64,000 nucleotides of DNA from Promethearchaeota archaeon (GTDB lineage Archaea; Asgardarchaeota; Lokiarchaeia; Sigyniarchaeales; SOKP01), in contig RDOA01000003.1 in assembly GCA_011364925.1 (NCBI GenBank), positions 72,924 through 136,923 on the forward strand, in the 5' to 3' direction. A model generated the notes under the pieces. That model saw only the letters and a list, made by a program, of their open reading frames with translations. It made no database searches and was not told where the DNA came from. How positions within the stretch are numbered: position 1 is the first letter of the stretch; every line of letters begins with the position of its first letter. The position numbers and the translations under genes were made by a program. Positions 4,465 through 62,318 of the stretch are shown piece after piece.

Positions 4465-4501
4465 CTTGTTTGATCTCTATTTAGGTAATTGATTAAAAAT
4501 A

Positions 4502-5332: not shown

Positions 5333-5373
5333 AGAGCTTTAGGGCGAGGTTTTATATATTTAAATTACATAAT

Positions 5374-5441: not shown

Positions 5442-5534
5442 AATTCCTTAGAAAAGGTAAAATTAATTCAATTGAATAAATATCGAATTCAATTAACTAA
5501 AGTTTTATATTAGGCTATATCTAATTTTACATTA

Positions 5535-12246: not shown

Positions 12247-12346
12247 CATTATCTTTTTCTGTTAGTTTAATTTGCCAAAATTTTATATTAAACTAAAACC
12301 AATCTAACATTAAATACTTATAATTTGATTTAGATATAGAAATCTA

Positions 12347-26254: not shown

Positions 26255-26270
26255 ACGAGGAGAATAAATA

Positions 26271-26612: not shown

Positions 26613-26726
26613 AAAGTCCAAGAAATCAAAATAGATTTTTTGAAAATTAAGGTAATAAAATATTACAAAATTTTGGAATATAAAATAATTAGAAATTAAA
26701 AAAACAAAAAAAAGAAGTGAAAAAAT

Positions 26727-27143: not shown

Positions 27144-27157
27144 AATATACATTAAAA

Positions 27158-27171
27158 TTTTTTTTTTTTTT
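27158..27171 (+). terminator. T14 tract between the DsrE2-like gene and hdrC
   Basis: 14 consecutive T, starting 15 nt after the stop at 27143. Oligo-T tracts act as archaeal termination signals. Confidence 0.4.
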
Positions 27172-27196
27172 CAAGATAATAAATTGGTGAATGTAA

Positions 27197-27757: not shown

Positions 27758-27760
27758 ATA

Positions 27761-30715: not shown

Positions 30716-31154
30716 AGATATAGAGCCAGAAGTAATGGAAAAGATCCAAGATATTGTTGTTTTTATGTGTAACGAATGTGGACAAGGATCGGCAAATACT
30801 GCTGGTGTAGCAAGAATGGCGTATAATCCCGCAATCCGAATCGTTCGAGTCCAATGCACGGGTCAAGTAGGACCTATTCAAATAATGGATGCTTTGAATA
30901 ACGGTGCTGATGCGGTTGCTTGCGTTGGTTGTTGTCTTGGAGCGTGTCATTTCTTTAACGGAAATATTTTATCGATGCATAGAATCAAACTGCTGAAGAA
31001 AGTATTTAAAGAATTAGGGTATAGCGATCAGTTTGTTAATCAATACACATCACGAGCCGCGGAAGGAGAAACAGCTGTAGGAGATTTTGAGGATTTAGTG
31101 ATACGATTGTCTAATGCAATTAGAGAGGAGGGGACAATAAAAGATGGATGTTAG
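30705..31154 (+). CDS. mvhD: MvhD-like (methyl-viologen-reducing hydrogenase delta subunit family) [2Fe-2S] protein
   Basis: VVFMCNECGQGSANTAG...VRVQCTGQV...GADAVACVGC. The ATG at 30705 follows GGAGGTG (30687-30693) and overlaps the hdrA stop. Confidence 0.8.
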   Translation: MSCEDIEPEVMEKIQDIVVFMCNECGQGSANTAGVARMAYNPAIRIVRVQCTGQVGPIQIMDALNNGADAVACVGCCLGACHFFNGNILSMHRIKLLKKVFKELGYSDQFVNQYTSRAAEGETAVGDFEDLVIRLSNAIREEGTIKDGC

Positions 31155-32379: not shown

Positions 32380-32381
32380 AC

Positions 32382-46668: not shown

Positions 46669-47301
46669 TTGATTTTTAGGAAATTAATTGTTGGACCTCT
46701 AGGGACAAATTGCTATATTTTCGGATCTGATGAGACTGGTGAAGTTGTTGTAATAGATCCTGGAGGTAACGCAGATAAAATTATCGCATCTATAGAGGAA
46801 TTGGGGGGTAAACCAATAGCTGTTTTATTAACTCATGGACACTTCGATCACACAACAAAAGTTGGAAGGATGCTGCGACACTTCCAAATCCCGCTGATGT
46901 ATAGCAGAAAGGAGTACGATTTTGGTACGTTTACGCAAAAAGAAGCTGATAGATGGTTAGTTGAGGGGGACATTATCAGTGTTGGTGAAATTACACTTCA
47001 CACTTTAGAGACTCCAGGACATAGCCCGGGTTCTCTTTGTTTTTATTCCACAGATGTTAAAGAGTTTAACGGTAAAGCAATAGATGGAATAGTGTTTTCG
47101 GGGGATTTAATCTTCAGGGGGAGCATTGGTCGTTCAGACTTTCAAGGTGGCGATCAAAAAGCTCTATTTTCAAGCATTAAAACTAAAATTATGTATAATA
47201 AAAATCTGACCGATAACATGATACTTTGTTCTGGTCACATGGAGTTAACAACGATAGGAATAGAAAGAGCGTCAAATATGTTTAGAAAATATTTCCTCTA
47301 A
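46669..47301 (+). CDS. metallo-beta-lactamase-fold hydrolase (glyoxalase II-like)
   Basis: LLTHGHFDH, TPGHSPGS, SGDLIFRGSIGRSDF. Confidence 0.8.
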   Translation: MIFRKLIVGPLGTNCYIFGSDETGEVVVIDPGGNADKIIASIEELGGKPIAVLLTHGHFDHTTKVGRMLRHFQIPLMYSRKEYDFGTFTQKEADRWLVEGDIISVGEITLHTLETPGHSPGSLCFYSTDVKEFNGKAIDGIVFSGDLIFRGSIGRSDFQGGDQKALFSSIKTKIMYNKNLTDNMILCSGHMELTTIGIERASNMFRKYFL

Positions 47302-47362
47302 TGATTAATATCAACTCTGGATATTAAGGAGCAAGAGAGAGTTAAAATCCAAGAAGAAGATC

Positions 47363-47647
47363 TTACTTTAGGATAATTAGAATTAGTTGTTCTTCTAAAG
47401 CAATCATAGTTTCTCCTTTCGATGTCTCCAAGCGAATAAATTTCAGACCACCTTCTTTCAGAGCATCGACCACTTGTTTACCTTTACCGATGAGTGAGGT
47501 TACGTAAGCTGATATCTCTTCACTAATTTCAATATCCATGTTAGAATCGATTGGTAAACCGCTTGAATCACAAATTATCACACCGCGAATACCTTCTCGT
47601 TCTTCAAAGCGACGAATGATGGCTTTTACTTCTTGACGATTAATCAA
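47363..47647 (-). CDS. Roadblock/LC7-domain protein
   Basis: 94 aa: ...GIRGVIICDSSGLPIDS...ISAYVTSLIGKGKQVV...LKFIRLETSKGETMIA, with the alpha-beta-beta-alpha-beta-beta layout typical of Roadblock/MglB. Confidence 0.7.
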   Translation of the reverse strand: MINRQEVKAIIRRFEEREGIRGVIICDSSGLPIDSNMDIEISEEISAYVTSLIGKGKQVVDALKEGGLKFIRLETSKGETMIALEEQLILIILK

Positions 47648-47929
47648 ATTCTAATTTTCACCATTTAGACAATAAATAGATTAAAATTTCAATTATATGA
47701 TATAAATATAATATATTTAGTATTTAAAAAACTATCATCTTCTTTTAATGCTTTTAATAAGACGCAAATAATTTAAGGAAGTTTTAGTACTCAATATTTT
47801 AACGAAATGTCCTAAAATAAATTTAAATTACTTTAAAATATATATATATTTAAGAATTTATCAGTTCAAATTTGAATAAGCTAATTCAGAAATCAAACTG
47901 ATAAAAATACAGTAAAGAGTAGCGTTACA

Positions 47930-48283
47930 ATGGTAGACAAAAATGTAATCGAACAGAAATTGGCAGAATTGATGGATATTGTACCAGAATGTGAAGGATT
48001 AATCGCTGCAGATCTTGAAGGTAAAGTGATTGTAGGTCAGACTATTACTGAAATGAACCACGGTGAAATCGCAAAAAAATGCAGCACAATAGTAAGAGAT
48101 TCCAATGGATTAGGTAACCACACGGGAAAAGGGTCTTTAAAATCTGCTACTATAGAGTTAGAAAGTGGATACGCTGTAATCGTTGGTTCTGACACTGGGA
48201 TTTTGATCGCATTAGCAGGGGTAGATGGAAAATCCTCACTCTCGCTTCTAAAGAGAAATTTAGTTTCAATCTCAAACTTATAA
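47930..48283 (+). CDS. Roadblock/LC7-domain protein
   Basis: 117 aa: LAELMDIVPECEGLIAADLEGKVIVGQT...EIAKKCSTIVRDS...LKSATIELESGYAVIVGSDTGILIALAG. Confidence 0.7.
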   Translation: MVDKNVIEQKLAELMDIVPECEGLIAADLEGKVIVGQTITEMNHGEIAKKCSTIVRDSNGLGNHTGKGSLKSATIELESGYAVIVGSDTGILIALAGVDGKSSLSLLKRNLVSISNL

Positions 48284-48332
48284 TTTTATTTCCTCTTTTT
48301 AAAAAATAAGGATGAAAAGTTAAGTTAGAATC

Positions 48333-51300
48333 TTAATCTTTAAGACCCTTTTCTTCTAATAAGGAGTCTAAATCTGTTTTTTCTTCTTCTTCTTCCTCAA
48401 CTTTCTCTTTTTTAGCTTTCTTCTTTTTAATTTTTTTAAGTTTTACTTCGCGAATTTCTTCTGTCTTTTCTTCTTGCACTTTGAGAGGTAATTCTCTCAC
48501 TGAAACGTATTTTCCTCTCCTTGGTCGTGGTTTAATTGGTTCCTCAAGAGGAGTTTCAATTTTCCTGATTGTTCTTCTTATATAAAGCAAAGAGATCGCC
48601 CACACTATTACGAAAATGCCAATCATTATCAAAGCGAAATAGGATATAAGCAACGAATCAAGTGGAGCATCGTAAATTGTAAAATCTACAGTTTTTTGGA
48701 ACACTACATTCTCCTGTGTTTGTTCGTTTCTTGCATCAATCGTCATGGAGAATGATATTTGGTCAACTGAAGATATATCTATTTTAACTATTATTGTTGT
48801 TATGTCATTTGGTTTGAATTCAGCTAATTTCATGAAGTTAATTTGCTCAATACTGTACGATAAAGTTGGAGAAATTTGAATAGTAATATTTTGGATTAAT
48901 ACTTTAAGTTCAGAATCACCAATATTACTTAATGTAATGCTAATCGCCGACGGAGTGTTTTTAAACAACTGATCCACATCCTTAGTGATCCTCAACGAGA
49001 TATTATTACGTGCTCGGAACATTGTTACAGTTATGTTTTGCGAATTGGCGAGGGTGTATTGATCTCCTTGCCAACTTAATCGAAATGTAAACTCATCCTC
49101 ATGAGGCAACAAGAGAGTGTCGATCTCAAAATTTGTTGTTCCATTTTCGTCAGTCATCTGAGTCGAAAAGTTTTGCCACGCATTGTTATCAAAATAAAGG
49201 AGCGAGACATTCTTAGCGGGGAATCTATCTCCAAATTCAGTGCTTAACACGGAACTTATGTTAAATTTTTGACCATATATCGGTGTGTGAGGGATAGTTG
49301 AAATCTCTGAAAATTTGCTATTAATTTTCAATGAGAATGAGCTAATGAAATCGTTATAACTGCTAACATAATTCTTATCGTAAATGTTAACGATGAATGT
49401 AGTTTTGTTAGGTAAGTATAAGCATTCGTCTCTTTTGAATGGCTTTAGGATCGATGCGCTTGTGACCTGTTTATCTTTTTTTAAGGCAATAAGGTATCCT
49501 TCAAATTCTGATTGAGTGCTATTTACGAGTAAGGATGTATCTGCACTTTTATAAGTTCCAACTTCATGACTTTTCCCGCCGTATTCAAAGTAAATAGTAA
49601 ATTTTGTCGTCACCCCTCCTTTTCTTACAGGTGCATTCACGCCCTTCCAAATTCCGTTTCCGAGAAGGTCTGGAATTGTGAGATCGACAAAGAAATCTTT
49701 CGTATCGTCCCCATTTGGATCGATACTTGGTTTTAACGTTTGAATTCCTGTAGTTTTTTCAGCAATTATCCATTTTTCGTTAGCAAAAGAAACCAATTGA
49801 ACTTTAACTTTGACCTTTAAATCAAGAAAATCGTGTAGATTATGAATTCTAGTGCCTATCCTTATGTCCTCATTCGGATTTAAGATGGTCTCGTTTTGCA
49901 CAAAAGTTTCAACGAGAATAGGGATTTCTTCATTGTTTACCTTATGAATAAATTCTTTATTAATGTTAGTTTTATTGATTGCGAAAAATCCGGGTCTATA
50001 TCGATCGTCTGTCACATTAACAGTGCCAATTAAAATTGAATAGCTTTCATAGACTCTATCAACTATTCCAACCAAAATATTGCGATCTAGATTTTCTTCG
50101 TAGAAACAATCTTGTAAATTAACATCGTAAGAATCAATATATAATTTAAGTTTTTGACAACCTATAGCAGATCCGTTCTCCCAAAAGAACCCTAAATAGT
50201 AGTTTCCGAGAAGAGGTGTAGCTTGATTAACATCTAAAATTGTAAGGTTGTTAAAGTCGTACTTAAGGTAATCGTCTACAATAACTCCCACTCCTGAATT
50301 CATTTCTGCTCCTGGAACTTTTGTTTTATTGTTTGGATAGAATAAAACTACATTAGCATTTCCATTGGTTGGGGGTTCCCCATCTGGTCTTTGAACATCG
50401 AGGCTAACAGAAATATTATCACCATACATAAATCCATTTGTTTCCCATAAAATGTCGTTATAGTTGATATAACTGTGCATATTGTAAATTAAATTACTGC
50501 TATTTAAAGCTAGAGAATATTGACCACTTATACCATTGATAATATAATAAGGAACAGCCGTATAATCAAATGATGGTCTGGAAACCAACGAACGTTCTCC
50601 TCCTGTGTTGTTTATTACTTCTCTATAAATATCATCGTAATTAGGATTTGTTAAATTATGTGCAGCATAATCGTTGGGGTACACAAACCAAACTTCTTGA
50701 AATGTCCACTCGTTCAAGTTCGGATCGGCAAGATTTAAAGTGAAATTTAGTTGCCATTCAGGAGTAGTATCATACGATACTTTATAATAGCTGTTCGCGT
50801 TTTCTATCCAATAAGCTCTTACCGTATATGATACATTAAATTCAAATCCTTTAATGACACTTTTATTCCAAGTGAGAACTATAGGAAAATTGTAAGAACC
50901 GTCATTGACTATCTCTGGTGTGAAGTGACTCGTCCATTGTCCTAAACCCCATGTTAAAGAGGAACTTACATCGTAAGGAGGAGCAGCAATAACGCTATTG
51001 TTTAATGGAATATTCTGAATCTTCAATGTATCTTCACTATCGTATGGATTTATAAAATCCGACGGCATGTAAGCCCTCGTCACGTTCAATTTAAACGCTG
51101 CTGCGTCTAGTTGTTCCGAGAGATATAGTGGCACTGAAGGGACTTGTTTTTTAGCTATGTTCCATGTAGATCCACTATCTTCGGATAAAAGTAATTTATG
51201 GTCTATTCGATTATCGGGATCACCATATGTCTGTCGGGGTAACGTGACCAAACTGTAGACCAAATCTGTCCGATTAGATTTGATCACGATAAAATAATTA

Positions 51301-52532
51301 TAAAGATTTAATTTTTGAGTGTTGCCAAGATTGAATCCAAAATATGTAAGTGAATCACCATGATATTCATTAAAACCAATTATTTTTGAATCAATAAGTT
51401 GAGAATTATTAGGTTTAAGATTGTTTGCAATTAAATAGGATTGAGTTCGAGGGATTGTAGAATTTGCTTTGTATAACGAGATATTTAATTCTGCGTTTGC
51501 AGCTTTGGCTAAATCTAAAGTTCTTATCCACGCGTAAAATCCATTTACTGTTGTACTTATTCCTTTTAGATCAAATTCCAACGCTAGTTGTTTGTTTTCG
51601 GTTATAGGTAAATCGAATCCGTATGTTGATACTAATTTAAATTCTCTTAAGGTGAGAATAAAATCACTAGAATCGTATTTCTGCACATAAAATTGAAGTT
51701 GGTTAACATCAGAACCATTAATGTAGTTTAAATTTTCGTTAATAATGCGATCTTCAAACTGTTGCGTGCCCAGACTGCTATTGATGAACAATCTGTCAGT
51801 TACATTGACCCACATAGAATCATAGATATTATACATCTTCAGAGTTAAAAACACATCATTGTTAAGACTACCAGAAAAGGTCGATATCAACCCTAATATC
51901 AAGGATCTATTAAAGTCTACATTAAACACTGGTCCGTCAAAAATCGTGTTAGTAAAGCTGGAATCGATTGTGAAATTCAATATTCCACCTGAAGAACTCA
52001 ACCTTATGTATGTAGATGGATTATTATCAACTAACTTATTGAAATTAATGGCATCTAAGTTTGTACCTGTATTGATGTTCATAAGCGATGCGTCTTCATC
52101 GTATGTAAACTTTATAAAATCATTTGCATATAGCGCACCCGTATTTTCAATAATATAATCGGTTGTAAAGTTATTTTGAAAAGTGAAATTGAAATTCCCA
52201 TATGAAAGGTATGTCGTGTCTGTAGTTGACATAGATGGAATGTTAAAAGAACCAACATTATTAGCATTAGAATTAGAGTTATTCAGCGCGTAAATTCTAA
52301 CATCTTGATTGGATCCCGAGCCGGTTATGTAGTAATCTGTTAAATATGGATCAGCAGCAGAAGATTCGGGATTCTCTTCACGATCGGACCAATATTGTTC
52401 TAAGGTATTGTTTGTATTGTGATTAAAATTACTGAAAATCTGAATATTGGCTAACAACATAAAAATAATAAACATACTTGCCACAATTATTCTTGTAACA
52501 TCATTTTTTCGGCGTTGAATCAAATAAACCAA
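48333..52532 (-). CDS. giant (1399 aa) single-pass surface protein with a K/E-rich cytoplasmic tail
   Basis: N-terminal hydrophobic anchor, then a ~1250-aa N/S/T/Y-rich body with many N-x-S/T sequons, then TM LLISYFALIMIGIFVIVWAISLLYI, then a ~95-aa tail ending KKIKKKKAKKEKVEEEEEEKTD... Confidence 0.8.
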   Translation of the reverse strand: MVYLIQRRKNDVTRIIVASMFIIFMLLANIQIFSNFNHNTNNTLEQYWSDREENPESSAADPYLTDYYITGSGSNQDVRIYALNNSNSNANNVGSFNIPSMSTTDTTYLSYGNFNFTFQNNFTTDYIIENTGALYANDFIKFTYDEDASLMNINTGTNLDAINFNKLVDNNPSTYIRLSSSGGILNFTIDSSFTNTIFDGPVFNVDFNRSLILGLISTFSGSLNNDVFLTLKMYNIYDSMWVNVTDRLFINSSLGTQQFEDRIINENLNYINGSDVNQLQFYVQKYDSSDFILTLREFKLVSTYGFDLPITENKQLALEFDLKGISTTVNGFYAWIRTLDLAKAANAELNISLYKANSTIPRTQSYLIANNLKPNNSQLIDSKIIGFNEYHGDSLTYFGFNLGNTQKLNLYNYFIVIKSNRTDLVYSLVTLPRQTYGDPDNRIDHKLLLSEDSGSTWNIAKKQVPSVPLYLSEQLDAAAFKLNVTRAYMPSDFINPYDSEDTLKIQNIPLNNSVIAAPPYDVSSSLTWGLGQWTSHFTPEIVNDGSYNFPIVLTWNKSVIKGFEFNVSYTVRAYWIENANSYYKVSYDTTPEWQLNFTLNLADPNLNEWTFQEVWFVYPNDYAAHNLTNPNYDDIYREVINNTGGERSLVSRPSFDYTAVPYYIINGISGQYSLALNSSNLIYNMHSYINYNDILWETNGFMYGDNISVSLDVQRPDGEPPTNGNANVVLFYPNNKTKVPGAEMNSGVGVIVDDYLKYDFNNLTILDVNQATPLLGNYYLGFFWENGSAIGCQKLKLYIDSYDVNLQDCFYEENLDRNILVGIVDRVYESYSILIGTVNVTDDRYRPGFFAINKTNINKEFIHKVNNEEIPILVETFVQNETILNPNEDIRIGTRIHNLHDFLDLKVKVKVQLVSFANEKWIIAEKTTGIQTLKPSIDPNGDDTKDFFVDLTIPDLLGNGIWKGVNAPVRKGGVTTKFTIYFEYGGKSHEVGTYKSADTSLLVNSTQSEFEGYLIALKKDKQVTSASILKPFKRDECLYLPNKTTFIVNIYDKNYVSSYNDFISSFSLKINSKFSEISTIPHTPIYGQKFNISSVLSTEFGDRFPAKNVSLLYFDNNAWQNFSTQMTDENGTTNFEIDTLLLPHEDEFTFRLSWQGDQYTLANSQNITVTMFRARNNISLRITKDVDQLFKNTPSAISITLSNIGDSELKVLIQNITIQISPTLSYSIEQINFMKLAEFKPNDITTIIVKIDISSVDQISFSMTIDARNEQTQENVVFQKTVDFTIYDAPLDSLLISYFALIMIGIFVIVWAISLLYIRRTIRKIETPLEEPIKPRPRRGKYVSVRELPLKVQEEKTEEIREVKLKKIKKKKAKKEKVEEEEEEKTDLDSLLEEKGLKD

Positions 52533-52682
52533 CCGTATTTCTCTATTTTTTAGTTATTAAATAATTTAAGAATATTAAAATTTGCTAATTTATATTAAAT
52601 TTATTCGATAGATTACTAAATGACAAGATATTCAAATAACTTAACGATAAAAAATTAAATGAAACCATAGTTTAATAAAATT

Positions 52683-54041
52683 ATGACAGAAGAATTAATT
52701 ATCAGGAAAATCGATGAAGAAAAAGAAAAATACATCGAATTCTTTAGAAAACTTGTCCAATGCGATTCAATTAATCCTCCTGGAAATGAAATGAATGTAG
52801 CGCTCGTAGTGGAAGCGTTTTTAAAGGAGGTTGGAATTAAAACTGAATTATTCCCTTTTGGGAATAATCGAGCAAATTTAGTGGCATATTTAACTAATAC
52901 TTTCAACGGAAAAAATTTACTATTTAATGGTCATATGGATACTGTTCCTCCTGGTACAGAAAATGATTGGAAATATCCTCCTTTAAGTGCTACAATTAAG
53001 CGAAATAAGTTAATTTTTGGGAGAGGGACCACTGACATGAAAGGGGGATTAGCAGCTATGGTCATTACTTTAAAAATTCTAAAGGAGTTAGATGTTCACA
53101 TTGATGGAAACTTGATTTTAAACGCTGTAGCAGATGAAGAAATAGGGGGAGAATTCGGAACGGGTTGGAGTGTAGAAAATCCACTTAAGAATATAAAGTG
53201 CAATTTTGCGATTATAGGTGAAGCCTCGGCTCTTAGTCCACTTCCAAAAGCGATATTAGTTGGAGAAAAAGGACATCTTCAAATTAAAATTACTACCAAC
53301 GGAATATCTGGTCATTCAGGAATGCCATCTATTAGTAAGAATGCAATTTACATGATGAGTGAAATAATTGAAAAGCTGGATAAACTTGATGAGCTGATTC
53401 CAACGCCTAAACCTCCAATGAGTTTAGAAAAAGTCAAAAGTTTAATAGGGGTAGTCTTTCCTAGTAGGGAAATATTCGAAAGGATAATGAAGGAACAACC
53501 TGAATTGGAGGGAGTTATGCTATCGATAACATCATATTCAAAAGCACTTACCATGATTCGAGGGGGAGTCAAAGAGAATGTAATCCCAGACTCCTGTGAA
53601 GGAGTACTTGACGTTAGACTTCTACCTAATCAGAAGAGTGAACCGATTGTGGATGCTTTGAAGAAATTGATCGAAGAAGATGTTGGTTATGAAGTAAGAG
53701 ATAAGGACTCTACCAGTCCAACTAAAATTTTTGTTGAACTTGAAGTAATATGTGACTCTGAAGGGTCTTACTGGGATGAGTGGGAGGATTCGGAAGACTT
53801 AAAGTTATTATACAGTATCGTTGAAGACATTTACGAAAAAAAACCTTTTTACTTCCTACTGCCAGGTTCTGCCGACGCCCGTTATTTACGTAATAAAGGT
53901 TACTGTCCCCAAACTGTCCTTTTTGGCCCTGGTGAAGGAAGATCTGCCCACGCCGTAGATGAACACGTTGAAATTCAAGATTTTCTGAGATCGATTAAAG
54001 TTTATTCGATTTTTGCTTACAGATTTCTATCAAAAAATTAA
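52683..54041 (+). CDS. M20-family metallopeptidase (ArgE/DapE-like deacylase)
   Basis: FNGHMDTVPPG, GRGTTDMKGG, ADEEIGGEFG. Confidence 0.8.
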   Translation: MTEELIIRKIDEEKEKYIEFFRKLVQCDSINPPGNEMNVALVVEAFLKEVGIKTELFPFGNNRANLVAYLTNTFNGKNLLFNGHMDTVPPGTENDWKYPPLSATIKRNKLIFGRGTTDMKGGLAAMVITLKILKELDVHIDGNLILNAVADEEIGGEFGTGWSVENPLKNIKCNFAIIGEASALSPLPKAILVGEKGHLQIKITTNGISGHSGMPSISKNAIYMMSEIIEKLDKLDELIPTPKPPMSLEKVKSLIGVVFPSREIFERIMKEQPELEGVMLSITSYSKALTMIRGGVKENVIPDSCEGVLDVRLLPNQKSEPIVDALKKLIEEDVGYEVRDKDSTSPTKIFVELEVICDSEGSYWDEWEDSEDLKLLYSIVEDIYEKKPFYFLLPGSADARYLRNKGYCPQTVLFGPGEGRSAHAVDEHVEIQDFLRSIKVYSIFAYRFLSKN

Positions 54042-54147
54042 AAAGGTTGAGAAAAAGTTAAGTATAAAGAATCAGATTAGATTTTTATTAAGAGCCCTCC
54101 TATACTGAAACTTTTATTTTTAAGGTAGATATTATAGAGACAAGAAA

Positions 54148-55335
54148 GTGCAAGATTTAGTAAAGATTGAGGATTGTGTTATTCTTATAGATTCTTCAAG
54201 ATCTATGGTTAGGAAAGATTTTAAACCAAGTCGATTAGCAATTGCCTTAGAAACTGCAAAAAAATTTATTCACGAGAAATTCCTAATAGATCCTAAGGAT
54301 CGGATCGCGATTCTTTCGTTTGGAGCAAATGTTACTAAATTATGCCCATTCAGTTTCGACGAAGAAAAACTCTTGAATGCATTAAATCGAATTCAGGTAT
54401 CTGGGAGCGGTACGCTTAATGAAGGTCTCGCGTTTTCAGTTCAATATTTAGTAGGAGAAATGCGTAAACTTGGAGGTAAGACAAATAGAATTTTTGTCAT
54501 CTCCGATAATAAAGTAGAATATACTGATAAGATAAGAAAAATCATCAATATCGCTAATGGATTAGGCATTTACATTGACGCATGTCAATTAGGAAAGACC
54601 GAGGACCATTCTGAAAGTATTTTAAAGAAAATTGCCAAAACTACAGGCGGAAATTTTGGTTTTTTCAATAATTCGAAAGCGATGTTAAATGCTGGAGCTT
54701 TATACGCATCAAAAAAAGAACTAAAAGAATCCATTGACTACTTTGGTCCAGAACAAAAGAGTGAGAATGCTCCACTTATCAGCGAGATCGCATTACAATT
54801 GAGAAGACCAAATGTTCTGGATATTCGTTTATTGATGAGTAGTAAAGAACGAGGTCAGGAAAAGTGTCAGATCTGTCACTCCACGAAATCTCAAATAACT
54901 GGCGCTGATTTTTACAGTGAGGGCCGATATTGCCCCTCATGTGAAAGACCTATGCATTTATCTTGCGTTGCTATGTGGGCTAAGAAAACTGAATACAAGG
55001 AAAATGTGTTCAGATGCCCGTTCTGCTTCTTCTTATTAGAACTCCCTCCTAGTGCGGTAAAATTGGTTGAAGAAAAAGTCCCAACGGAAGAACCAAAAAT
55101 TAAATTAATCGATGAGAGTGGAATTAATATGGTCTATGTCAATCAAGTTCCAGAAGTGGAAATTGATGAAATTAACGCGTCTTGTACTTATTGTCACAGT
55201 ATATTCTTAGGTGATTATAAGGTCTATCAATGCGAGAAATGTAAAGCATATTACCACGAACCATGTCTAAAAAAGATGTATAATGAAATCAGTGCGTGTA
55301 GAAATTGTGGAGCACAGATAATTATTAATGATTAA
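54148..55335 (+). CDS. vWA-domain protein with two C-terminal C4HC3 (PHD/RING-variant-like) zinc fingers
   Basis: MIDAS motif DSSRSM in VILIDSSRSMVRKDFKPSRL. Finger 1 is CQIC-x18-CPSC-x4-H-x2-C-x16-CPFC, and finger 2 is CTYC-x12-CEKC-x4-H-x2-C-x10-CRNC. Confidence 0.75.
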   Translation: MQDLVKIEDCVILIDSSRSMVRKDFKPSRLAIALETAKKFIHEKFLIDPKDRIAILSFGANVTKLCPFSFDEEKLLNALNRIQVSGSGTLNEGLAFSVQYLVGEMRKLGGKTNRIFVISDNKVEYTDKIRKIINIANGLGIYIDACQLGKTEDHSESILKKIAKTTGGNFGFFNNSKAMLNAGALYASKKELKESIDYFGPEQKSENAPLISEIALQLRRPNVLDIRLLMSSKERGQEKCQICHSTKSQITGADFYSEGRYCPSCERPMHLSCVAMWAKKTEYKENVFRCPFCFFLLELPPSAVKLVEEKVPTEEPKIKLIDESGINMVYVNQVPEVEIDEINASCTYCHSIFLGDYKVYQCEKCKAYYHEPCLKKMYNEISACRNCGAQIIIND

Positions 55336-55517
55336 AAATATTCCGAGTTTCATTCATATTTAGATTCTATTTATTGTAAAAAAATTAATTCCACTCTAAC
55401 ACATAAATTTGAAATAATAAAGTAGATTACTTTAATTACTTTCATAATCATTGATAAATGTTAAAAACATTATCGTAAGCTCACGCTGCTCCAATCAAAT
55501 AAAGGAGGTAATGCACG

Positions 55518-57566
55518 ATGACGAAGAATGAAAAAAATAAATGGGTAATTACTTCAGCATGGCCCTATGTCAACGCTATACCACATTTAGGCAATATGAT
55601 AGGAAGTGTGTTATCTTCTGATGTATTTGCTAGGTTTTGTAGACTAATTGGAGACGAAGTTGTTTTTGTTTCCGGCTCTGACTCTCATGGAACTCCGGTG
55701 GCTGTAGCTGCAAAGCAACAAAATGTACCTGTAAAAGATTTAGCGTTCAAAAATCACGTTATTATTAAAGAATTATTTGAAAAATGGCAAATTTCTTACG
55801 ATAACTATACTATTACACATACTCCAACTCATATCGATTTTGTGCAGAAATTCTATTTAGATGTTCAGAAAAACGGTTATATATTTGAAAAAGAGATCGA
55901 ATCGTTATATTGTGAACCAGATAATCTTTATTTACCCGATAGATTCGTAGAAGGAACATGTCCTCACTGTGGTGATGAGGGAGCAAGGGGGGATCAATGT
56001 GACACGTGTCAAAGACTTCTTACTCCCTTAGAATTGATTAATCCACGTTGTGCGATTTGTGGTACTACTCCTTCGATAAAGAATACGAAGCATTGGTATC
56101 TGGATTTACCAAAACTCCAAAATCAATTAAAAGTTCTAATTGAAAAAAATGAGATCATTCCTTCTAATGCTAAACAAATGCTGCTAAATAGTATTGCTGA
56201 AGGATTACCTGCGAGAGCAATTACTCGAGATTTGGAATGGGGAATACCAGCCAAATTTAAAGGAGCAGAGGGAAAAACAATTTATGTATGGTTCGAAGCA
56301 GTACTCGGATATATTTCTGCTTGTCAGGAGTGGGCCGAAAAGATTATAAACAACCCAAAAAAATTTGATTATTTTTGGAAAGATCAAAAAACTAAGACAG
56401 TTTTCTTTATAGGAAAAGATAACATTATATTTCATTTAATCGTGTTTCCTGGGTTACTGTTAGGCTATAATGCAGATAAAATTGAAGGAGACAAATTTGT
56501 TCTCCCTTATAATGTATCATCGACAGAATGGTTAATGTATGAAAATCAAAAATTCTCAAAATCAAGGGGAATCGGAATCTGGATCGACGAAGCGTTAAAG
56601 ATAGCACCTTTAGATTATTGGCGATTTACTTTAGTATATAATCGACCAGAAACTAGCGATACTAGTTTTTTATGGTCAGAATTTGAGAATAACATTAAAA
56701 CATTAAACGATAACATTGGAAATTTTATTCACAGAACATTAACTTTTATCGACAAGCAATTTAAAGGAATCGTTCCTAAAAAACTAGAGTACGATGAGAC
56801 AGATAAAAAGTTCGTTGATCTTATAAATAATATCGGCTTTGAAATTGGAGAAAGTATAAGAAATTTTAAGTTAAGAAAAGCTATAAGAGACATCGTTAAT
56901 TTTGGAAAGGAAGGGAACGTTTATCTTAATAGTAAAGCTCCCTGGCATTTGATTAAAAAGGATAAGAGTGCTGCTGGTCACGTATTCAATATTTGTACTC
57001 AAGCAGTTTACGCGTTTGGAGTACTCTTAAGTCCATTTATTCCGGGAACTGCTGAAAAAATATTGTCGTATTTGAATCATCCTAATTTGAGCGAATTAAG
57101 ATGGGATTCAATTAACGAAAATTCTGTAAAAGAGGGTCAAAAAATAAAACACCCAGAACCCCTTTTTCAAAAACTTGATATTAATGAGATAAAAATTAAA
57201 CTTCAAAAAATAAGGGAAGGAACGGAACATATTGGTGGTAAAGAATTGGTTTCTTACGAGGATTTTAAAAAGTTAGACATAAGAGTTGCTCTTATTGAGA
57301 ACGTAGAAAAGGTACCTAAAGCAGATAAGTTGTATAAACTATCTATTGATCTTGGAGATGAGAAGCGGATATTAGTCGCAGGGTTAGCCGAACATTATAA
57401 AGAAGAAGATTTAAAAGGTAAAAAGATCGTAATCCTCGCTAATCTGGAACCAAGGAAATTGAGAGGGATTCTAAGCCAAGGGATGCTGCTAGCAGCAGTT
57501 GAAGGCGATACTGTATCGGTATTAACACCTGAGAAAGATATTCCATCAGGAGCAAAAGTAGAATAG
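55518..57566 (+). CDS. metG: methionyl-tRNA synthetase with C-terminal tRNA-binding (EMAPII/Trbp111-like) domain
   Basis: PHLGNMIG (HIGH-type), KFSKSRG (KMSKS), zinc knuckles CPHCG...CDTCQ...CAICG, and C-terminal DIRVALIENVEKVPKADKLYKLSIDLG. An AAGGAGGT Shine-Dalgarno motif lies upstream. Confidence 0.9.
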   Translation: MTKNEKNKWVITSAWPYVNAIPHLGNMIGSVLSSDVFARFCRLIGDEVVFVSGSDSHGTPVAVAAKQQNVPVKDLAFKNHVIIKELFEKWQISYDNYTITHTPTHIDFVQKFYLDVQKNGYIFEKEIESLYCEPDNLYLPDRFVEGTCPHCGDEGARGDQCDTCQRLLTPLELINPRCAICGTTPSIKNTKHWYLDLPKLQNQLKVLIEKNEIIPSNAKQMLLNSIAEGLPARAITRDLEWGIPAKFKGAEGKTIYVWFEAVLGYISACQEWAEKIINNPKKFDYFWKDQKTKTVFFIGKDNIIFHLIVFPGLLLGYNADKIEGDKFVLPYNVSSTEWLMYENQKFSKSRGIGIWIDEALKIAPLDYWRFTLVYNRPETSDTSFLWSEFENNIKTLNDNIGNFIHRTLTFIDKQFKGIVPKKLEYDETDKKFVDLINNIGFEIGESIRNFKLRKAIRDIVNFGKEGNVYLNSKAPWHLIKKDKSAAGHVFNICTQAVYAFGVLLSPFIPGTAEKILSYLNHPNLSELRWDSINENSVKEGQKIKHPEPLFQKLDINEIKIKLQKIREGTEHIGGKELVSYEDFKKLDIRVALIENVEKVPKADKLYKLSIDLGDEKRILVAGLAEHYKEEDLKGKKIVILANLEPRKLRGILSQGMLLAAVEGDTVSVLTPEKDIPSGAKVE

Positions 57567-57567
57567 A

Positions 57568-58800
57568 TTATAATTTAAGGGAAAATATTGGATTCAATCG
57601 AGCGATAATCTCACCAAGGTCCAATTGAAGCGTTTTGAGGATCACATCTCTTCCTCTGTACTCGAATTGCAATTCTTTGACATTCCGGACGATTTTTAAT
57701 TTATTCCTGTCTTTCATTAATTCACAAGCGAAGTATCTTTGATCTTTGTATTCTAGTACTTTTTGCACTTGACTAATGTCCGGTAACCTATATCCCCCTC
57801 CATGAGGCAACAAATTAGCGTTTAATAATAGGTCTAACATTTCAAGTCGGTTGGCTCTTTCCAAAAAGTCGTTATTTTTGAGCGTTGTTTCTGAAAAATT
57901 ATTTTTCCCTCTAAACAAGTAACTTGATAGATCCGCTCGGAGTGTTGTCGGAAAAATATTAGATGAATCACTTTCAGTACAGTTGCTCCCTATATACATG
58001 TTGTTGTAATCCTTTAGGAATTGGTGCGCTGAATTACAAATAACTGTAAATTTGGAGCTGAATAAATTCATAGCAACTATTTCTCTTTTTACATTTGAAA
58101 AGATTAATGCTTTTTTATTGAACTCGAGATATTCTTTTGCGTCTGAATCTAACAAAACAAACTGGGTTCCAAATTCAGTCGTCTCTTTAATTGCTCGGCT
58201 CATTAGAGATTTGGAACCATCGATATATAGTCCTATACCATACTTATCGTCGCGAAATTCTGGAGCAGAACCATGGATCATGAACATATACGGAGGAAAA
58301 TCCAGATTAGAAAGATTTTTCGTTTCGTAACAGTTGATAAAGTGATTAGAAATTCCATAATCCCAATTTATCAATATATCTCCACTATATAGTTCTGTAC
58401 TCTTTACACTGTCTATTTTTTTAATGATCTCGTAGGGATCTGGTAGTTCTTCTAACCCGCCCACTAAAATACCGCAGCAATTTGGTTTAATATTTAAGAA
58501 AACTAATTTATCTTTCCCAGAACCCCAATTTAATCTCCCACCATAACCAAGACCAGAGTTCCATCGAAAATTATTTTTTGAAATCGTTTCATCTGGGGAT
58601 GAGATGAAGGTAGCTTTTGGTTCAAATCCATATTTCTCTTGAATCAAGTGGAATTGCGCCAAACCGTATTTCATGTTCGCTCTGCATAATTTAGAAGCTC
58701 CATCGTTTAATCCCGTTGAGAAAATGAAATCATTTGCTCTTTGAAGTAAATCTGTCTTAGATAGTTCAGATACTTTATTGGATAACTCAAATGAACCCAT
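57568..58800 (-). CDS. highly divergent RtcB-like protein (tentative)
   Basis: Colinear degenerate matches to RtcB signatures as I recall them: NIKPNCCG (cf. DIGCGM), ISNHF (GNHF), MIHGSAPE (HSGSRG), NSAHQ (HHN), IFPTTLRADLSSYLFRG (IPGSMGAKSFIVRG), LPHGGGY (HGAGR). 410 aa. Confidence 0.45.
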   Translation of the reverse strand: MGSFELSNKVSELSKTDLLQRANDFIFSTGLNDGASKLCRANMKYGLAQFHLIQEKYGFEPKATFISSPDETISKNNFRWNSGLGYGGRLNWGSGKDKLVFLNIKPNCCGILVGGLEELPDPYEIIKKIDSVKSTELYSGDILINWDYGISNHFINCYETKNLSNLDFPPYMFMIHGSAPEFRDDKYGIGLYIDGSKSLMSRAIKETTEFGTQFVLLDSDAKEYLEFNKKALIFSNVKREIVAMNLFSSKFTVICNSAHQFLKDYNNMYIGSNCTESDSSNIFPTTLRADLSSYLFRGKNNFSETTLKNNDFLERANRLEMLDLLLNANLLPHGGGYRLPDISQVQKVLEYKDQRYFACELMKDRNKLKIVRNVKELQFEYRGRDVILKTLQLDLGEIIARLNPIFSLKL

Positions 58801-58887
58801 TCTACTTAATAATTAGATATTATTATATTTATATATACGATAGTATGTTTGTAAGTTAGGAAAAAGTAATCTCAATTTAGCATAATT

Positions 58888-59526
58888 ATGAGCGATCCAG
58901 ACAACACAATTTTATTCGACTCGGTGAAAGGAATACAATTAGAGGGAGAGTTTGAAGGGTCCATAATTACCCGATGCAAAGACGATAACAATTCTATTAT
59001 TTTTTCGGACAATCTTAAAATCTCTAACTCAGAAGGTATTTTTATCGTCAACGGATTCAGAGTCGGCTTTGAATTAGATTATAATAAAAAGTCTGCTTTT
59101 TCTCGAAAAATTGAAGCGCAATGGTACGAGGATTTTGAATCCATTGAATATTCAATACTCATTTCAGAAGATATAATGCAAATCTATGGAGAAGGCCAGT
59201 TTTCAGATGCTTACCCATATACTTTAAACAAGCTTAATACAGCTACCCTTTATTTTGATGATTATGGACATAAAATTAACCATTTGGACTTCTTCAAGGG
59301 AGAAATGCTTAAGAATCCCATAGCTCTTGTGGGAAATGGCGTTATAGTTGCAGACAGAGTTGTTATAGATGAAAGAATCGATCCTGTATTTTACGATTGT
59401 TTAATCGTTGGACGAGATGAAAATGAAAATCTTTCGGTGTCATTTGAACCATATATGAATGTGAAAAAATCTTTAACACATGTTAAATACATCATTATCT
59501 TAGGAATAGAAGAATTGAAACTTTAG
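58888..59526 (+). CDS. hypothetical protein
   Basis: 212-aa ORF with normal composition and no recognisable motif. Confidence 0.5.
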   Translation: MSDPDNTILFDSVKGIQLEGEFEGSIITRCKDDNNSIIFSDNLKISNSEGIFIVNGFRVGFELDYNKKSAFSRKIEAQWYEDFESIEYSILISEDIMQIYGEGQFSDAYPYTLNKLNTATLYFDDYGHKINHLDFFKGEMLKNPIALVGNGVIVADRVVIDERIDPVFYDCLIVGRDENENLSVSFEPYMNVKKSLTHVKYIIILGIEELKL

Positions 59527-59652
59527 GTAACTCAGCAACTTATATATTCTTGGAATTCTTGCAACTTTATCATCAATTTTATATTGATTAACTTGTAATT
59601 AAAGTATAATAGAGCGTAGTTAATTAAGATTTGATTATAAAGATCTAAAAAG

Positions 59653-60888
59653 ATGATACTATACGAAAATAATAGCGCTAGATTGCTTAATATAATAAAG
59701 TGGGGAAATAATCCTTTCAAAAAGTTTGTAAGTACCAGTGAAATTAAAGAAGAATTAGATTTTGTAAAATCACGGGAGGGTCTCATTAATAGAATTAAGA
59801 CAATCGTGAAAGAAGACCGCAATTTTATCCTTCCCGTTATCGGGGAAGTAGGTTCAGGAAAGACTCATCTCTATTGGGCTCTAAAAAATAGTCTTTATTA
59901 TTATAATACGTTCTATATCTCTCTAGAATCCGTATACAAAAAGTTTTTTTATAATATTTACTCTGAATTCATAGAAAAACTTGAAATAGCGCCCTTGAAA
60001 TTCGTAGTGAACCAATTATGCGAAAATTGGGGTGCTTTAGAGAGGAAGTATGGATTTTTTCAAGTAGTTGACATTGAAAAAATTAAAAAGACGGCAATCA
60101 ATCAGTTATCTGCTAAATACAGCGAAATCGAACCAGAAATTCTAAAGGACGCAATCACGGGGATTACAACCCATCAATTAGACCCATATAAAAAAATTGA
60201 GGCTGAAAGATGGTTATTAGGCAAATTATTGGACGCAAAAGAATTGTCCATTCTAAATATTACTCACGATCTTCATAAGGGTAAAAATGCTTACGTTCTT
60301 TTAAGGCTCTTTATTGAAAATTCCAAGCTAGGAACGATTCTTTTTATCGACGATTTTGAAAAAATTGTTGGAATCTCGAATCCACAAGATGATTTAGTCG
60401 AAGAAGTGTTCGATCCTAGTTGGCTCTACGGAGCTGAAAGGTCTCCTAACGATATCGCTTCTGAAAAGATTTTTTCAAAAATAACCCAACTACAAAATAT
60501 TGATGGATTACGCGTAATTATTACTTTAAAATCAATAGACTCACTAGAACAAATCAAAAAAAAATATCAAGATATTGATTCCGAATTGTTACCACCAATA
60601 AAAGAACCCATTTTTCTTGAAAATTTTAGCGAAGAGGATATCTTCGAGTTATATAAGAGTACGATGAGGAATTTCTTCAACAATATTGAATGTAATGAAT
60701 TTACAAAAGAGTTCGAGAACAACTACTTTCCATTAAATTCAACGATATTGAAAAATGTCTTTAGACAGGCTCACGGAAATCCTAGGGTCATTATAAAGAC
60801 ATTAATTAGGATTTTCAACGAGATCATTGAAGATGAGGAAGATCTTGAGACAATTTTAAAAAATTATGAAAATTTAACAACCAATTAA
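59653..60888 (+). CDS. P-loop NTPase (archaeal-ATPase/AAA+-like)
   Basis: Walker A GEVGSGKTHL and Walker B ILFIDDFE. The N-terminal FV....E...L.F context resembles the archaeal ATPase family. Confidence 0.65.
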   Translation: MILYENNSARLLNIIKWGNNPFKKFVSTSEIKEELDFVKSREGLINRIKTIVKEDRNFILPVIGEVGSGKTHLYWALKNSLYYYNTFYISLESVYKKFFYNIYSEFIEKLEIAPLKFVVNQLCENWGALERKYGFFQVVDIEKIKKTAINQLSAKYSEIEPEILKDAITGITTHQLDPYKKIEAERWLLGKLLDAKELSILNITHDLHKGKNAYVLLRLFIENSKLGTILFIDDFEKIVGISNPQDDLVEEVFDPSWLYGAERSPNDIASEKIFSKITQLQNIDGLRVIITLKSIDSLEQIKKKYQDIDSELLPPIKEPIFLENFSEEDIFELYKSTMRNFFNNIECNEFTKEFENNYFPLNSTILKNVFRQAHGNPRVIIKTLIRIFNEIIEDEEDLETILKNYENLTTN

Positions 60889-60908: not shown

Positions 60909-62318
60909 TTAAGAATCCTTTGTTTCTGTAGAATCATCTAAATCCAATGGGACATTAGAAATGTCTAAGTCTTTTCTTTCTTGTTCACCAGAATTTTCTC
61001 CTTGTTCACCAATTAACTTTTTACTTCTTAGGTAATTTTGGAATTCCCAGTCGCTAATTTTGTTGGATTCAAGTGCGCCGCTATTAATAAGGTAATTTTT
61101 AAAATCAGAAACGATGTGAATGACTTCTTCTTGTTTAAATAGCTTTTTCACGATTAAACCTTTCTTCTCTAAAATATACTGCGAATAGATCCAGTAGAAA
61201 ACGATGGTAATCAACAAGACCATGAAATTATTCGTTAGATTTACTTGGCTGCGACTTGTGTACGTTCCCGAAATTGAGCCAGCTCCCGTTATCATAACTA
61301 TCTGACCTTCAATATAGATTAATGTAAATGCAAATAAGAAAAAGGCTAAATTATTAGAATTAAATATTTTAAATCTAAATGTTCTATTACCTAAACCTCT
61401 GATGACCAGAATTGCAGTAAAGATCATTAATAACACATCAATAACTGCCCGAAAAGCATCAATACCAACAGCCTGAGTAACGCTTCTAAAAGAATTTATA
61501 AAACTAAAGGATCGATACCAAATAATAATCCAAACTAAGATATAAAAAATTGAGGAAAAGACATTGTACGTATCGTTTTTCATACTTTTTATGTAAAGAA
61601 AAATTAGTCGATAAGAAATCAAAAATATAATAATGTACATAGCGATGTTCCAACCATTAAACCACCAAAGAGATTCTAAAGAATAATCTGGAGGTTGAGG
61701 TTCAAAAAATGAAATGAACGAAAAATAGGTTCCTAACTGAGCTAAAACTGGGACTAGAACCGCGAGAATTAAAAAAACCATGCTAAAAATCTTAATTCTA
61801 TTTGATCCTCTATGCGACAAAACCTTATTATCTAGACTTTCGGAAATATTTACGAAACTAGTCCTTAAAAAGAATATTTGCGCCATATTCCACCCAAAGT
61901 ATAAAACGATAAAAAATCCTGGGAGGATATAATCCCATCCTAAAAATTGAATAGGAATTTGTGTAGAACTACCGAATAGAAAATATAAAAGAACGATAAG
62001 AGCACTTATACCTAACGAACCAACAAAAATCAACACTTTGTGTTGATCTAAGCTTTTAGTAAAAAGGAATCGATCAAATTTAGAATTGATGCCGAGAAAC
62101 ATTAGTACGATAAAGGATAGAGAGAAAGTAGTCGCTAAATACAAACCAACATTGCCTAAACTTGTAGCACCTAAAAAGAAAAATAGAATCAAGGCCAGTA
62201 CCTCAATGAAAAAGAAAATTGTATACGCTATATGACTCGGATTAAATATCTTGTGGAAATATTTATCCAGTTTAGCTCCTATTTTGGAACGTGCTATTGA
62301 CTCAGACATAAAACTCAC
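60909..62318 (-). CDS. polytopic membrane protein (~11 TM) with an acidic C-terminal tail, unknown function
   Basis: 469-aa ORF with many hydrophobic helices. The tail is ...GEQGENSGEQERKDLDISNVPLDLDDSTETKDS. Confidence 0.65.
   Translation of the reverse strand: MSFMSESIARSKIGAKLDKYFHKIFNPSHIAYTIFFFIEVLALILFFFLGATSLGNVGLYLATTFSLSFIVLMFLGINSKFDRFLFTKSLDQHKVLIFVGSLGISALIVLLYFLFGSSTQIPIQFLGWDYILPGFFIVLYFGWNMAQIFFLRTSFVNISESLDNKVLSHRGSNRIKIFSMVFLILAVLVPVLAQLGTYFSFISFFEPQPPDYSLESLWWFNGWNIAMYIIIFLISYRLIFLYIKSMKNDTYNVFSSIFYILVWIIIWYRSFSFINSFRSVTQAVGIDAFRAVIDVLLMIFTAILVIRGLGNRTFRFKIFNSNNLAFFLFAFTLIYIEGQIVMITGAGSISGTYTSRSQVNLTNNFMVLLITIVFYWIYSQYILEKKGLIVKKLFKQEEVIHIVSDFKNYLINSGALESNKISDWEFQNYLRSKKLIGEQGENSGEQERKDLDISNVPLDLDDSTETKDS

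Follow-up and report, generated by a model that had tools for sequence, protein, structure and literature searches.

In a 64,000-nucleotide stretch of contig RDOA01000003.1 from a Promethearchaeota archaeon (hereafter the window), one gene encodes a protein of 395 amino acids (aa) in which an N-terminal vWA domain is followed by two zinc fingers of apparent RING type. Our best-supported conclusion is that the vWA domain of this vWA–double-RING protein has a specific relationship to the TFIIH subunit p44/Ssl1, with which the protein is also collinear in architecture. The protein represents a real Asgard family, which is apparently undescribed. No description of this family was found in the searchable literature, and prior mention elsewhere cannot be excluded; public records name its proteins merely 'VWA domain-containing protein', with precomputed Pfam Ssl1 matches visible. 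The gene and its parts are as follows (window coordinates; pLDDT, predicted local distance difference test score; AF2, AlphaFold2).

54148..55335 (+): vWA–double-RING gene (type A), GTG start, 395 aa, stop included (list of open reading frames, ORFs)
54112..54123 (+): A/T-rich TATA-like element TTTTATTTTTAA, ~30 nucleotides (nt) 5' of the start codon (read from the sequence)
54169..54711 (+): vWA domain, aa 8-188 (Pfam VWA_2, VWA and Ssl1; AF2 model; Foldseek)
54190..54204 (+): DxSxS motif of the metal ion-dependent adhesion site (MIDAS), D15-S16-S17-R18-S19, then the p44-like RSM..DFKPSRL (33-member family conservation)
54712..54864 (+): conserved linker, aa 189-239, ASKK...DYF...APLxSEIALxLRRP..LDxRLMM (orthologue alignment; pLDDT <50 for aa 191-235)
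54865..55026 (+): zinc finger 1, aa 240-293, predicted C4HC3 RING variant (conserved ligands, model pLDDT ~88-92, Pfam PHD)
55027..55182 (+): inter-finger linker, aa 294-345, with a short helix, a disordered part and a beta strand into finger 2 (AF2 finger model)
55183..55308 (+): zinc finger 2, aa 346-387, predicted C4HC3 RING type (conserved ligands, model pLDDT 88-95)

Relationship to TFIIH p44/Ssl1

The full-length AF2 model (mean pLDDT 66.6) is good in the vWA domain and disordered in the linker. When this model was compared with the PDB by Foldseek, the top 23 matches were all p44/Ssl1 chains from TFIIH structures. Full-length p44/Ssl1 chains, aligned over ~390-415 columns (E 5e-16 to 1e-10), outscore the vWA-only p44 entries (~3e-12 to 5e-11), which indicates a contribution of the fingers to the p44 match; Bat proteins, Rpn10, CMG2 and vWF A3 come after p44, at ~1e-10 to 1e-9. 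The root-mean-square deviation (rmsd) to p44 is large because the relative placement of the domains differs. Taken by itself, the vWA domain displays the alternating beta-alpha fold (blockwise pLDDT ~55-91, mostly 75-90) and matches vWA-only p44/Ssl1 entries with a template modelling (TM) score of 0.81-0.83 and an rmsd of 2.6-2.7 Å, TM scores to solved vWA domains being 0.7-0.83.

An alignment of 33 diverse family members, with identity down to 26%, was also compared with p44 by hhalign, the human p44 sequence used being 100% identical to PDB chain 28jm_E. The two align with Prob 99.3% and E 1.6e-20. The 319 aligned columns begin at the DxSxS motif and reach as far as the final pair of zinc ligands, and the bulk of the score comes from the vWA domain. 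Beyond it, the linker IALxLRRP is placed opposite p44 SLIRMGFP, and finger 2 is paired with the C4C4 RING of p44, the aligned block covering seven of the eight ligand positions. In finger 1, ligands 3, 4, 7 and 8 (GRYCPxC, RCPxC) stand opposite the C4 finger of p44 (GYFCPQC, ECKxC), in a register that sets window aa 259-265 and 289-293 against human p44 288-294 and 304-308. These four ligands (C262/C265 and C290/C293) are those that would form zinc site 2 of a cross-brace. Judging from this single profile alignment, the mononuclear C4 finger of p44 may be a half-degraded RING; at the level of sequence, homology of the fingers to p44 is no more than suggestive.

Human p44 and the window protein have the same size (395 aa) and the same domain order, namely vWA, zinc module and C-terminal binuclear cross-brace RING. 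The openings of their vWA domains are strikingly alike (LIDSSRSMVRKDFKPSRL in the window protein, VVDGSRTMEDQDLKPNRL in p44), the pattern D-x-S-R-[ST]-M...D-[FL]-K-P-[NS]-R-L being common to p44 and the Asgard family; at the position aligned to the DxSxS motif, human p44 reads DGSRTMEDQDLKPNRL. The vWA identity, however, is only 24%, and the C-terminal modules differ in spacing (x11 in p44, x12 here) and in their fifth ligand (Cys in p44, His here). Moreover, human p44 begins with a ~55-residue N-terminal extension, whereas the window vWA starts at residue 8 and the alignment at p44 residue 61. In the middle of the molecule, p44 carries a mononuclear C4 finger (human C291, C294, C305, C308) where the window protein has a binuclear C4HC3 module, and no match to Pfam C1_4 (PF07975) was obtained with the window protein at E<=10. 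The missing extension, the binuclear middle module and the lack of a C1_4 match place it outside the p44 family in its present definition. The original prediction of a possible archaeal relative of the p44 architecture is supported in part, by the fold and the overall alignment, whereas similarity to p44 is weak for the fingers taken separately, which are considered below.

Which vWA domains are closest was examined with profiles in both directions. Among the sequences of solved structures, the family vWA profile has nothing but Rpn10 and p44/Ssl1 in its 16 best distinct matches (1e-9 to 2e-5); a prokaryotic vWA, 4rck_A, first appears in 17th place (3e-5), with more Ssl1 chains just below. Rpn10 is top or joint-top in these searches (2.8e-6 with the single sequence, 1.1e-9 with the family profile). 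This preference is not general to VWA_2-type domains, since a control protein, P0213, a generic vWA-only near non-family match, prefers mussel PTMP1, 4rck and Bat proteins and reaches Ssl1 and Rpn10 at ~5e-5 only. In the reverse test, a vertebrate p44 vWA profile gives median scores of 31 bits for type A proteins, to which the window protein belongs, and 40 bits (maximum 52.7) for their type B paralogues described below, against none or at most 28 bits for generic prokaryotic vWA domains. The Rpn10 profile gives medians of 36.8 bits for type A and 27.3 for type B, but up to 36.7 for generic prokaryotic vWA. Thus, the p44 profile discriminates the Asgard family while the Rpn10 profile does not, and the closest characterised relative of the vWA domain is that of TFIIH p44/Ssl1. 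The earlier likening of this domain to an Rpn10/p44 subgroup keeps its p44 half and loses the other, a specific Rpn10 relationship being rejected by this control.

In Pfam, the whole protein scores 63.9 bits with VWA_2, 54.3 with VWA and 24.8 with PHD (cut-off 24); the Ssl1 model (PF04056) is passed at 33.3 bits for a cut-off of 27, yet below the generic VWA_2. All five canonical MIDAS positions are present (D15, S17, S19, T89 and D120), of which T89 and D120 are assigned by a pattern match to the CMG2 motif GET..EGL / TDG. The MIDAS had been predicted to be intact (DSSRS), and so it is in the window protein, with D15 and S19 invariant in the family, but T89 varies even among close orthologues (S/L/I/V/Q/F). 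The vWA domain may bind a metal through its MIDAS.

The two zinc fingers and their Asgard family

A search of a 5.8-billion-sequence collection retrieved 384 homologues at E<=1e-3. Among the best 120 of these, most are full length and identities range from 60 to 96%; wherever the organism is named, they come from Asgard metagenome-assembled genomes (MAGs) labelled Loki-, Thor-, Hod-, Hermod-archaeota or Promethearchaeota. A profile search of 1.84 billion cluster representatives gave 59 below 1e-30, many full-length (~390-418 aa), and the named distant members are again Asgard (Promethearchaeota, Lokiarchaeia, Helarchaeota). In GTDB species representatives, we found 80 orthologous loci, with orthologue identities of 56-84%. 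The family is Asgard-specific (Promethearchaeota/Lokiarchaeia), all named members being Asgard bar one. The latter, L010 (DATKTW010000029.1), was deposited as 'Candidatus Nanopelagicaceae bacterium' and carries a 77%-identical orthologue together with Asgard synteny; this MAG contig was probably mis-binned or mislabelled.

The complete genome CP070831.1 encodes at least two full-length paralogues, type A (P0057, the orthologue of the window protein) and type B (P0369), which has the same architecture and is 34% identical to type A over the whole length. More divergent branches were also observed: P0146, P0154 and P0157 with the N-terminal ILGTYDLEKKVED, P0201-P0259 with 'RSEDTLIF', and the long P0155, P0158 and P0164 (619-686 aa), which have extra C-terminal double zinc ribbons and of which P0155 is labelled Helarchaeota. 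Some divergent branches have a lost or degenerate DxSxS motif, and some have zinc ribbons in place of finger 2. The DxSxS motif is also lost in p34 and in many non-metal-binding vWA domains.

Across the 33 members, the invariant residues are D15, S19, R29, C240, I242, C243, R260, C262, C265, H270, C273, W277, R289, C290, C293, L296, C346, C349, C362, C365, H370, C384 and C387, while S17, D120, P291 and C373 are kept in >=90%. Linker residues A215 and L218 are also kept in >=90% of the family, and many linker columns are invariant among orthologues. The fingers read C240-x2-C243-x18-C262-x2-C265-x4-H270-x2-C273-x16-C290-x2-C293 and C346-x2-C349-x12-C362-x2-C365-x4-H370-x2-C373-x10-C384-x2-C387. 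Hence, all but one of the 16 zinc ligands are invariant, and that one, C373, is kept in >=90%; the sole visible ligand change, in P0144, replaces Cys by His, still a ligand. Such conservation implies that the pattern cannot be due to chance, and both fingers are expected to bind zinc.

The fingers were modelled on residues 231-395 from an alignment of both paralogue types, zinc being absent from the model. Mean pLDDT is 81.9, with ~88-95 in both fingers and low values in the linker alone (aa 312-324, pLDDT <50, between a helix at 301-310 and a strand at 328-334). In each finger, a beta hairpin precedes a helix whose start coincides with the H-x2-C ligands. The PDB neighbours that Foldseek returned for this model are all RING-type cross-brace domains: 4ccg_Y (a chain of an E2-E3 complex), RNF165/Ark2C, RNF38 and the Slx1 RING, then NSE1 (32% identity), listerin, RNF12, deltex and TRIM23, all with prob 0.97-1.0, TM 0.54-0.73 and rmsd 2.2-3.8 Å. 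The tandem is matched by a RING1B-BMI1 fusion, p44 chains, PHF7 and the DPF3b double PHD finger. E-values are modest (>=9e-3) because the domains have only ~60 residues. From this model, both fingers are likely binuclear cross-brace RING-type modules, not zinc ribbons.

Profile searches with finger 2 point in the same direction, with Arkadia RING-H2 at 9.9e-5 and also RNF165, PKC C1 and the KMT2D, PYGO and TAF3 PHD fingers. The nearest sequence motifs of finger 1 are the C4HC3 RING-like finger of NSE1, the RING-H2 of EL5 and the RING of listerin, all weak (E 0.15-0.43). The zf-RING_2 model (cut-off 27.3 bits) is passed by the distant paralogues P0131 (32.4) and P0140 (33.2). On finger 2 of the window protein, Pfam C1, Prok-RING_1 and RING models all remain below threshold; for Prok-RING_1, scores are 16.6 bits here and up to 27.1 in paralogues, the cut-off of 29.1 never being reached.

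In RING domains, the E2-binding surface involves an Ile or Val after ligand 1, a Trp in the central helix and a Pro after ligand 7. Finger 1 has residues of this type at all three positions, as assigned by alignment to EL5, NSE1 and Arkadia and from established knowledge of RING-E2 contacts: I242 (CxIC) and W277 (HxxCxxxW, four residues after ligand 6) are invariant and P291 (CPxC) is kept in >=90%. In finger 2, neither the E2-type Trp nor the Pro is present. The PHD spacing C-x2-C-x(4-5)-H-x2-C is found in both fingers. The Trp that is a PHD signature two residues before ligand 7 is not conserved in finger 1, where type A has F288 and other members A, T or I.

The original prediction fared well on this part of the protein. 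Both cysteine/histidine motifs occur with exactly the spacings that it had given, and the strings VILIDSSRSMVRKDFKPSRLAIALETAKKFI, DRIAILSFGANV and HLSCVAMW, the last containing the RING-type H-x2-C-x3-W, are all found in the 395-aa protein. Its choice of a cross-brace rather than ribbons, for which it had proposed modelling, agrees with the model of the fingers and its RING-type neighbours.

Possible function and alternative explanations

No obvious signal peptide or membrane segment is visible in the protein sequence, which suggests a cytosolic protein. Our favoured explanation, whose truth we judge to be evenly balanced, is that it is an interaction scaffold with RING-E3-like capacity and a p44-related vWA domain. 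In this scheme, the MIDAS face of the vWA domain would be the docking site for a partner or substrate. Since finger 1 has Ile, Trp and Pro at the E2-binding positions of RINGs, it would recruit an E2~ubiquitin(-like) conjugate from the Asgard ubiquitin system. Finger 2, which is p44-RING-like, would mediate protein-protein contacts, and by analogy with the p44 RING and the p34 vWA it could possibly bind a paralogue at the latter's vWA domain. The scheme predicts E2 recruitment and E3 activity, as well as partners and oligomerisation. An Asgard E1/E2/RING-E3 ubiquitin cascade has been reconstituted in vitro (bioRxiv 10.1101/2023.07.25.550441).

Several points weigh against the p44 relationship or against the E3-like capacity. 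With the family profile, unnamed vWA-only proteins score 58-83 bits against ~40 for p44 and Rpn10, and those scanned in this group have ordinary VWA_2/VWA matches in Pfam; the p44 profile of the reverse test was built from vertebrates only. When the fingers alone are compared by hhalign, finger 2 is the only one aligned with the p44 RING (Prob 37%, E 3.6e-4), and a HMMER p44 profile matches the fingers in register but insignificantly, with domain scores of 0-6 bits. The cross-brace topology is deduced from fold matches. The window protein scores 14.5 bits with zf-RING_2, under the Pfam cut-off of 27.3, and finger 1 is without the linchpin Arg after the last Cys (F/Y294). Finally, there is no ubiquitin-system, XPD/XPB or proteasome gene in the window or the conserved neighbourhood, whose genes (M20 peptidase, methionyl-tRNA synthetase (MetRS) and unknowns) are uninformative on function.

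The affinity for p44 could be read more literally: the protein would be a functional counterpart or progenitor of p44, its vWA domain stimulating an XPD-type superfamily 2 helicase and its zinc modules binding a p34-like paralogue in a proto-TFIIH core. The Foldseek ranking, the hhalign alignment over vWA and C-terminal RING, the common vWA opening and the nearly p44-like ligand spacing of finger 2 all speak for it, as does the p44-specific reverse-profile signal, strongest for type B; two full-length paralogues in one complete genome are also reminiscent of the p44/p34 pair. We nevertheless regard it as unlikely. Besides the missing N-terminal extension and C1_4 match and the binuclear module in place of the C4 finger, p34/Tfb4 is not among the solved-structure matches and Tfb4 matches in Pfam are faint only; no helicase or other TFIIH-like gene was found in any neighbourhood examined, nor any evidence of an XPD, p34 or p62 partner, homologues of p52, p62 and p8 not having been searched for. 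The fingers might instead be readers of PHD or C1 type that recognise a modified or specific peptide (e.g. a histone or lysine-rich tail), a lipid or a small ligand, the vWA domain then providing another binding module, with no ubiquitin transfer. Such a role, suggested by the C4HC3 pattern, the C-x2-C-x4-H-x2-C spacing, the PHD score just at its cut-off, the C1_1 and PHD_NSD matches on finger 2, its PKC C1 and PHD profile matches and the likeness of the tandem to DPF3b and PHF7, seems to us distinctly improbable, as the PHD-signature Trp is not conserved while the RING-type Trp (H-x2-C-x3-W) is invariant, and the best neighbours in structure and sequence are E3 RINGs.

The remaining explanations carry very little weight. 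As an Rpn10-like ubiquitin receptor or proteasome factor, the protein would dock by its vWA domain on the proteasome or an AAA activator, the fingers replacing the ubiquitin-interacting motifs (UIMs); the leading position of Rpn10 among solved-structure sequences invites this idea, which we think very improbable given that the Rpn10 profile does not separate the family from generic prokaryotic vWA, that no UIM was detected by Pfam at E<=10 and no proteasome gene nearby, and that Rpn10 ranks structurally below all full-length p44 chains and a Bat-type protein. That we are dealing with an ordinary prokaryotic vWA protein, BatA-like or MoxR-partner-like, with generic zinc ribbons and only a coincidental eukaryotic look, is largely refuted and scarcely credible to us. 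VWA_2 is indeed its best Pfam model, NCBIfam returns weak generic matches alone (BatA/acidobacterial vWA), and unnamed vWA-only proteins outscore p44 and Rpn10 with the family profile. However, the fingers match RINGs and not ribbons, the reverse p44 profile and the P0213 control point to a specific p44 affinity, we noted neither a signal peptide or transmembrane segment in the sequence nor a MoxR ATPase partner among the annotated neighbours, and all named members are Asgard, bar the contig with a bacterial label. Finally, the vWA domain could be the 'trunk' of a Sec23/24-like proto-coat or small-GTPase effector that binds an Arf/Rag-like GTPase, the Sec23/24 trunk being vWA-like. Type B genes always adjoin an Arf/RagA-like GTPase gene and type A lies two genes away from Roadblock/LC7 genes, but this adjacency is weak evidence since synteny is broadly conserved in the clade. 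No Sec23/24 chain is among the top 50 structural matches, zf-Sec23_Sec24 gives E 0.83, the beta-barrel, helical and gelsolin domains are absent, and the published Asgard Sec23-like proteins belong to a different family (PMC11914678). We therefore rejected a Sec23/24-like identity and place hardly any confidence in this explanation.

Returning to a scaffold with RING-E3-like capacity and a p44-related vWA domain, an evolutionary extension can be proposed tentatively, although we find it rather doubtful: this Asgard family, with at least two paralogues per genome, would be the archaeal stock of eukaryotic p44 and perhaps of p34 too, the C4 finger of p44 would be the remnant of a complete RING (site 2 of finger 1), and the contact between p44 RING and p34 vWA would stem from Asgard RING-vWA contacts. 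To our knowledge, the structural subunits of TFIIH (p44, p34, p52, p62, p8) are regarded as eukaryotic inventions, known archaeal homologues being limited to those of the helicases XPB and XPD. The family would be a candidate p44 precursor, as its closest characterised relative in profile, domain order and predicted fold is p44/Ssl1. If this is true, the 'eukaryote-only' structural core of TFIIH gains an Asgard origin, and the origin of XPD regulation by p44 and of its reported E3 activity becomes directly testable. The family would also add a second, architecturally distinct RING-type class to the Asgard ubiquitin toolkit. Should the p44 likeness be convergent, it would still be a highly conserved Asgard protein in 80 species-level genomes. 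The claim is experimentally tractable with recombinant protein.

Genomic context and comparison with known systems

The gene belongs to a nine-gene block (window 46669..60888, both strands) that is kept in most of the 80 species-level genomes (loci L005-L084), each gene being present in 45-76 of the 80 loci. Its order is Lactamase_B, Roadblock/LC7, a 1399-aa protein, M20 peptidase, vWA–double-RING, MetRS and unknowns of 410, 212 and 411 aa. This synteny is unusually deep for genes without obvious common function. We have set the neighbourhood aside as functional evidence: it looks like general synteny, with nothing tied to ubiquitin, repair, transcription or the proteasome. Pfam analysis of essentially all ORFs of at least 110 aa revealed no E1, E2, ubiquitin, JAB, proteasome or helicase gene in the 64-kb window, and neither the vWA–double-RING gene nor its neighbours had a PADLOC defence-system match. 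The TATA-like element is a possible promoter of the gene itself, with a very short leader; together with gaps of 106 bp to the upstream M20 gene and 182 bp to MetRS, it suggests an independently transcribed gene. A bacterial-type promoter and terminator scan was uninformative, the host being an archaeon.

Type B is found in another context. Its gene always divergently adjoins that of a 402-aa Arf/Gtr1-RagA-like GTPase, with a shared intergenic region of ~200-300 bp (L004 6572..9206; L085 4585..7194; L086 4488..7194; L087 1890..4506). The two genes may work together as a pair. Also near type B are a DUF8180 gene and MtrH- and TPR-like genes.

Within the conserved block, the 1399-aa protein (48333..52532, -) has no Pfam or NCBIfam match and stands beside Roadblock genes in 66 of the 80 loci. 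It resembles a large surface glycoprotein, with a hydrophobic segment at the N-terminus, a transmembrane one at the C-terminus, a tail rich in Lys and Glu, and very many N-x-S/T sequons. The proteins at 57568..58800 (-, 410 aa), 58888..59526 (+, 212 aa) and 60909..62318 (-, 469 aa) have no Pfam, NCBIfam or PADLOC match, nor does the 410-aa one have any among PDB sequences. Synteny is kept in 67 of the 80 genomes for the 410-aa gene and in 58 for the 212-aa gene.

Elsewhere, the content of the window is typically Asgard, with Ras-family GTPases beside TPR proteins and Roadblock/LC7, Hdr/Mvh-like and DsrE/F/H-like genes. A TPR–GTPase arrangement occurs twice (932..6089 and 10171..12901): large TPR-repeat proteins (932..2626, 2782..4464 and 10171..12246) are followed downstream by genes for small GTPases of the Ras/Roc family (5535..6089 and 12347..12901, 184 aa each). 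The opposite strand encodes a TPR and winged-helix protein (6076..8004). At 25512..34844, a redox cluster that lies entirely on one strand comprises DsrE/DsrF/DsrH-like and HdrC/HdrB-like (Fer4, CCG) proteins, an HdrA-like flavoprotein, MvhD/FlpD, an Oxidored_q6-like protein and a large FrhB/Pyr_redox fusion; its GC content and GC skew are raised relative to the rest of the window.

The combination of domains in the vWA–double-RING family echoes several known systems. Asgard Sec23/24-like proteins also possess a zinc finger and a vWA-like trunk, to which helical and beta-barrel domains are added, and Foldseek matches them to Sec23 (PMC11914678); they form a different family, the window protein returning p44 and ending after finger 2. 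For p44, published work found its RING to be structurally most similar to RNF38 and Ark2C and to bind the p34 vWA domain in an E3/E2-like manner (PMC5737387); RNF165 (Ark2C) and RNF38 head the match lists of our finger model too. Rpn10/PSMD4 has the opening DxS..M...D[YF]xPxR[LF] in common with the window vWA but carries UIMs C-terminal to it, where the window protein has zinc fingers. Prokaryotic RING families (Prok-RING_1, PF14446) bear a weak, below-cut-off similarity to finger 2. RING-H2 and RING-variant E3s (Arkadia/RNF111, RNF165/Ark2C, RNF38, EL5) and NSE1 (PF08746) display the eight-ligand motif and beta-beta-alpha core of the window model. Finger 1 includes the CxIC, H-x2-C-x3-W and CPxC of E2-binding RINGs and resembles CNICHS...C..C...MHL.CVA...RCPHC of NSE1. 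In contrast to RING E3s, the window fingers have a Cys as fourth ligand, the PHD-like C-x2-C-x4-H spacing and no linchpin Arg, and two RING-type modules are fused to a vWA domain. The plant RGLG1/2 E3 ligases, in which a copine-type vWA is followed by a single C-terminal RING-HC, illustrate that a vWA–RING E3 is a workable design.

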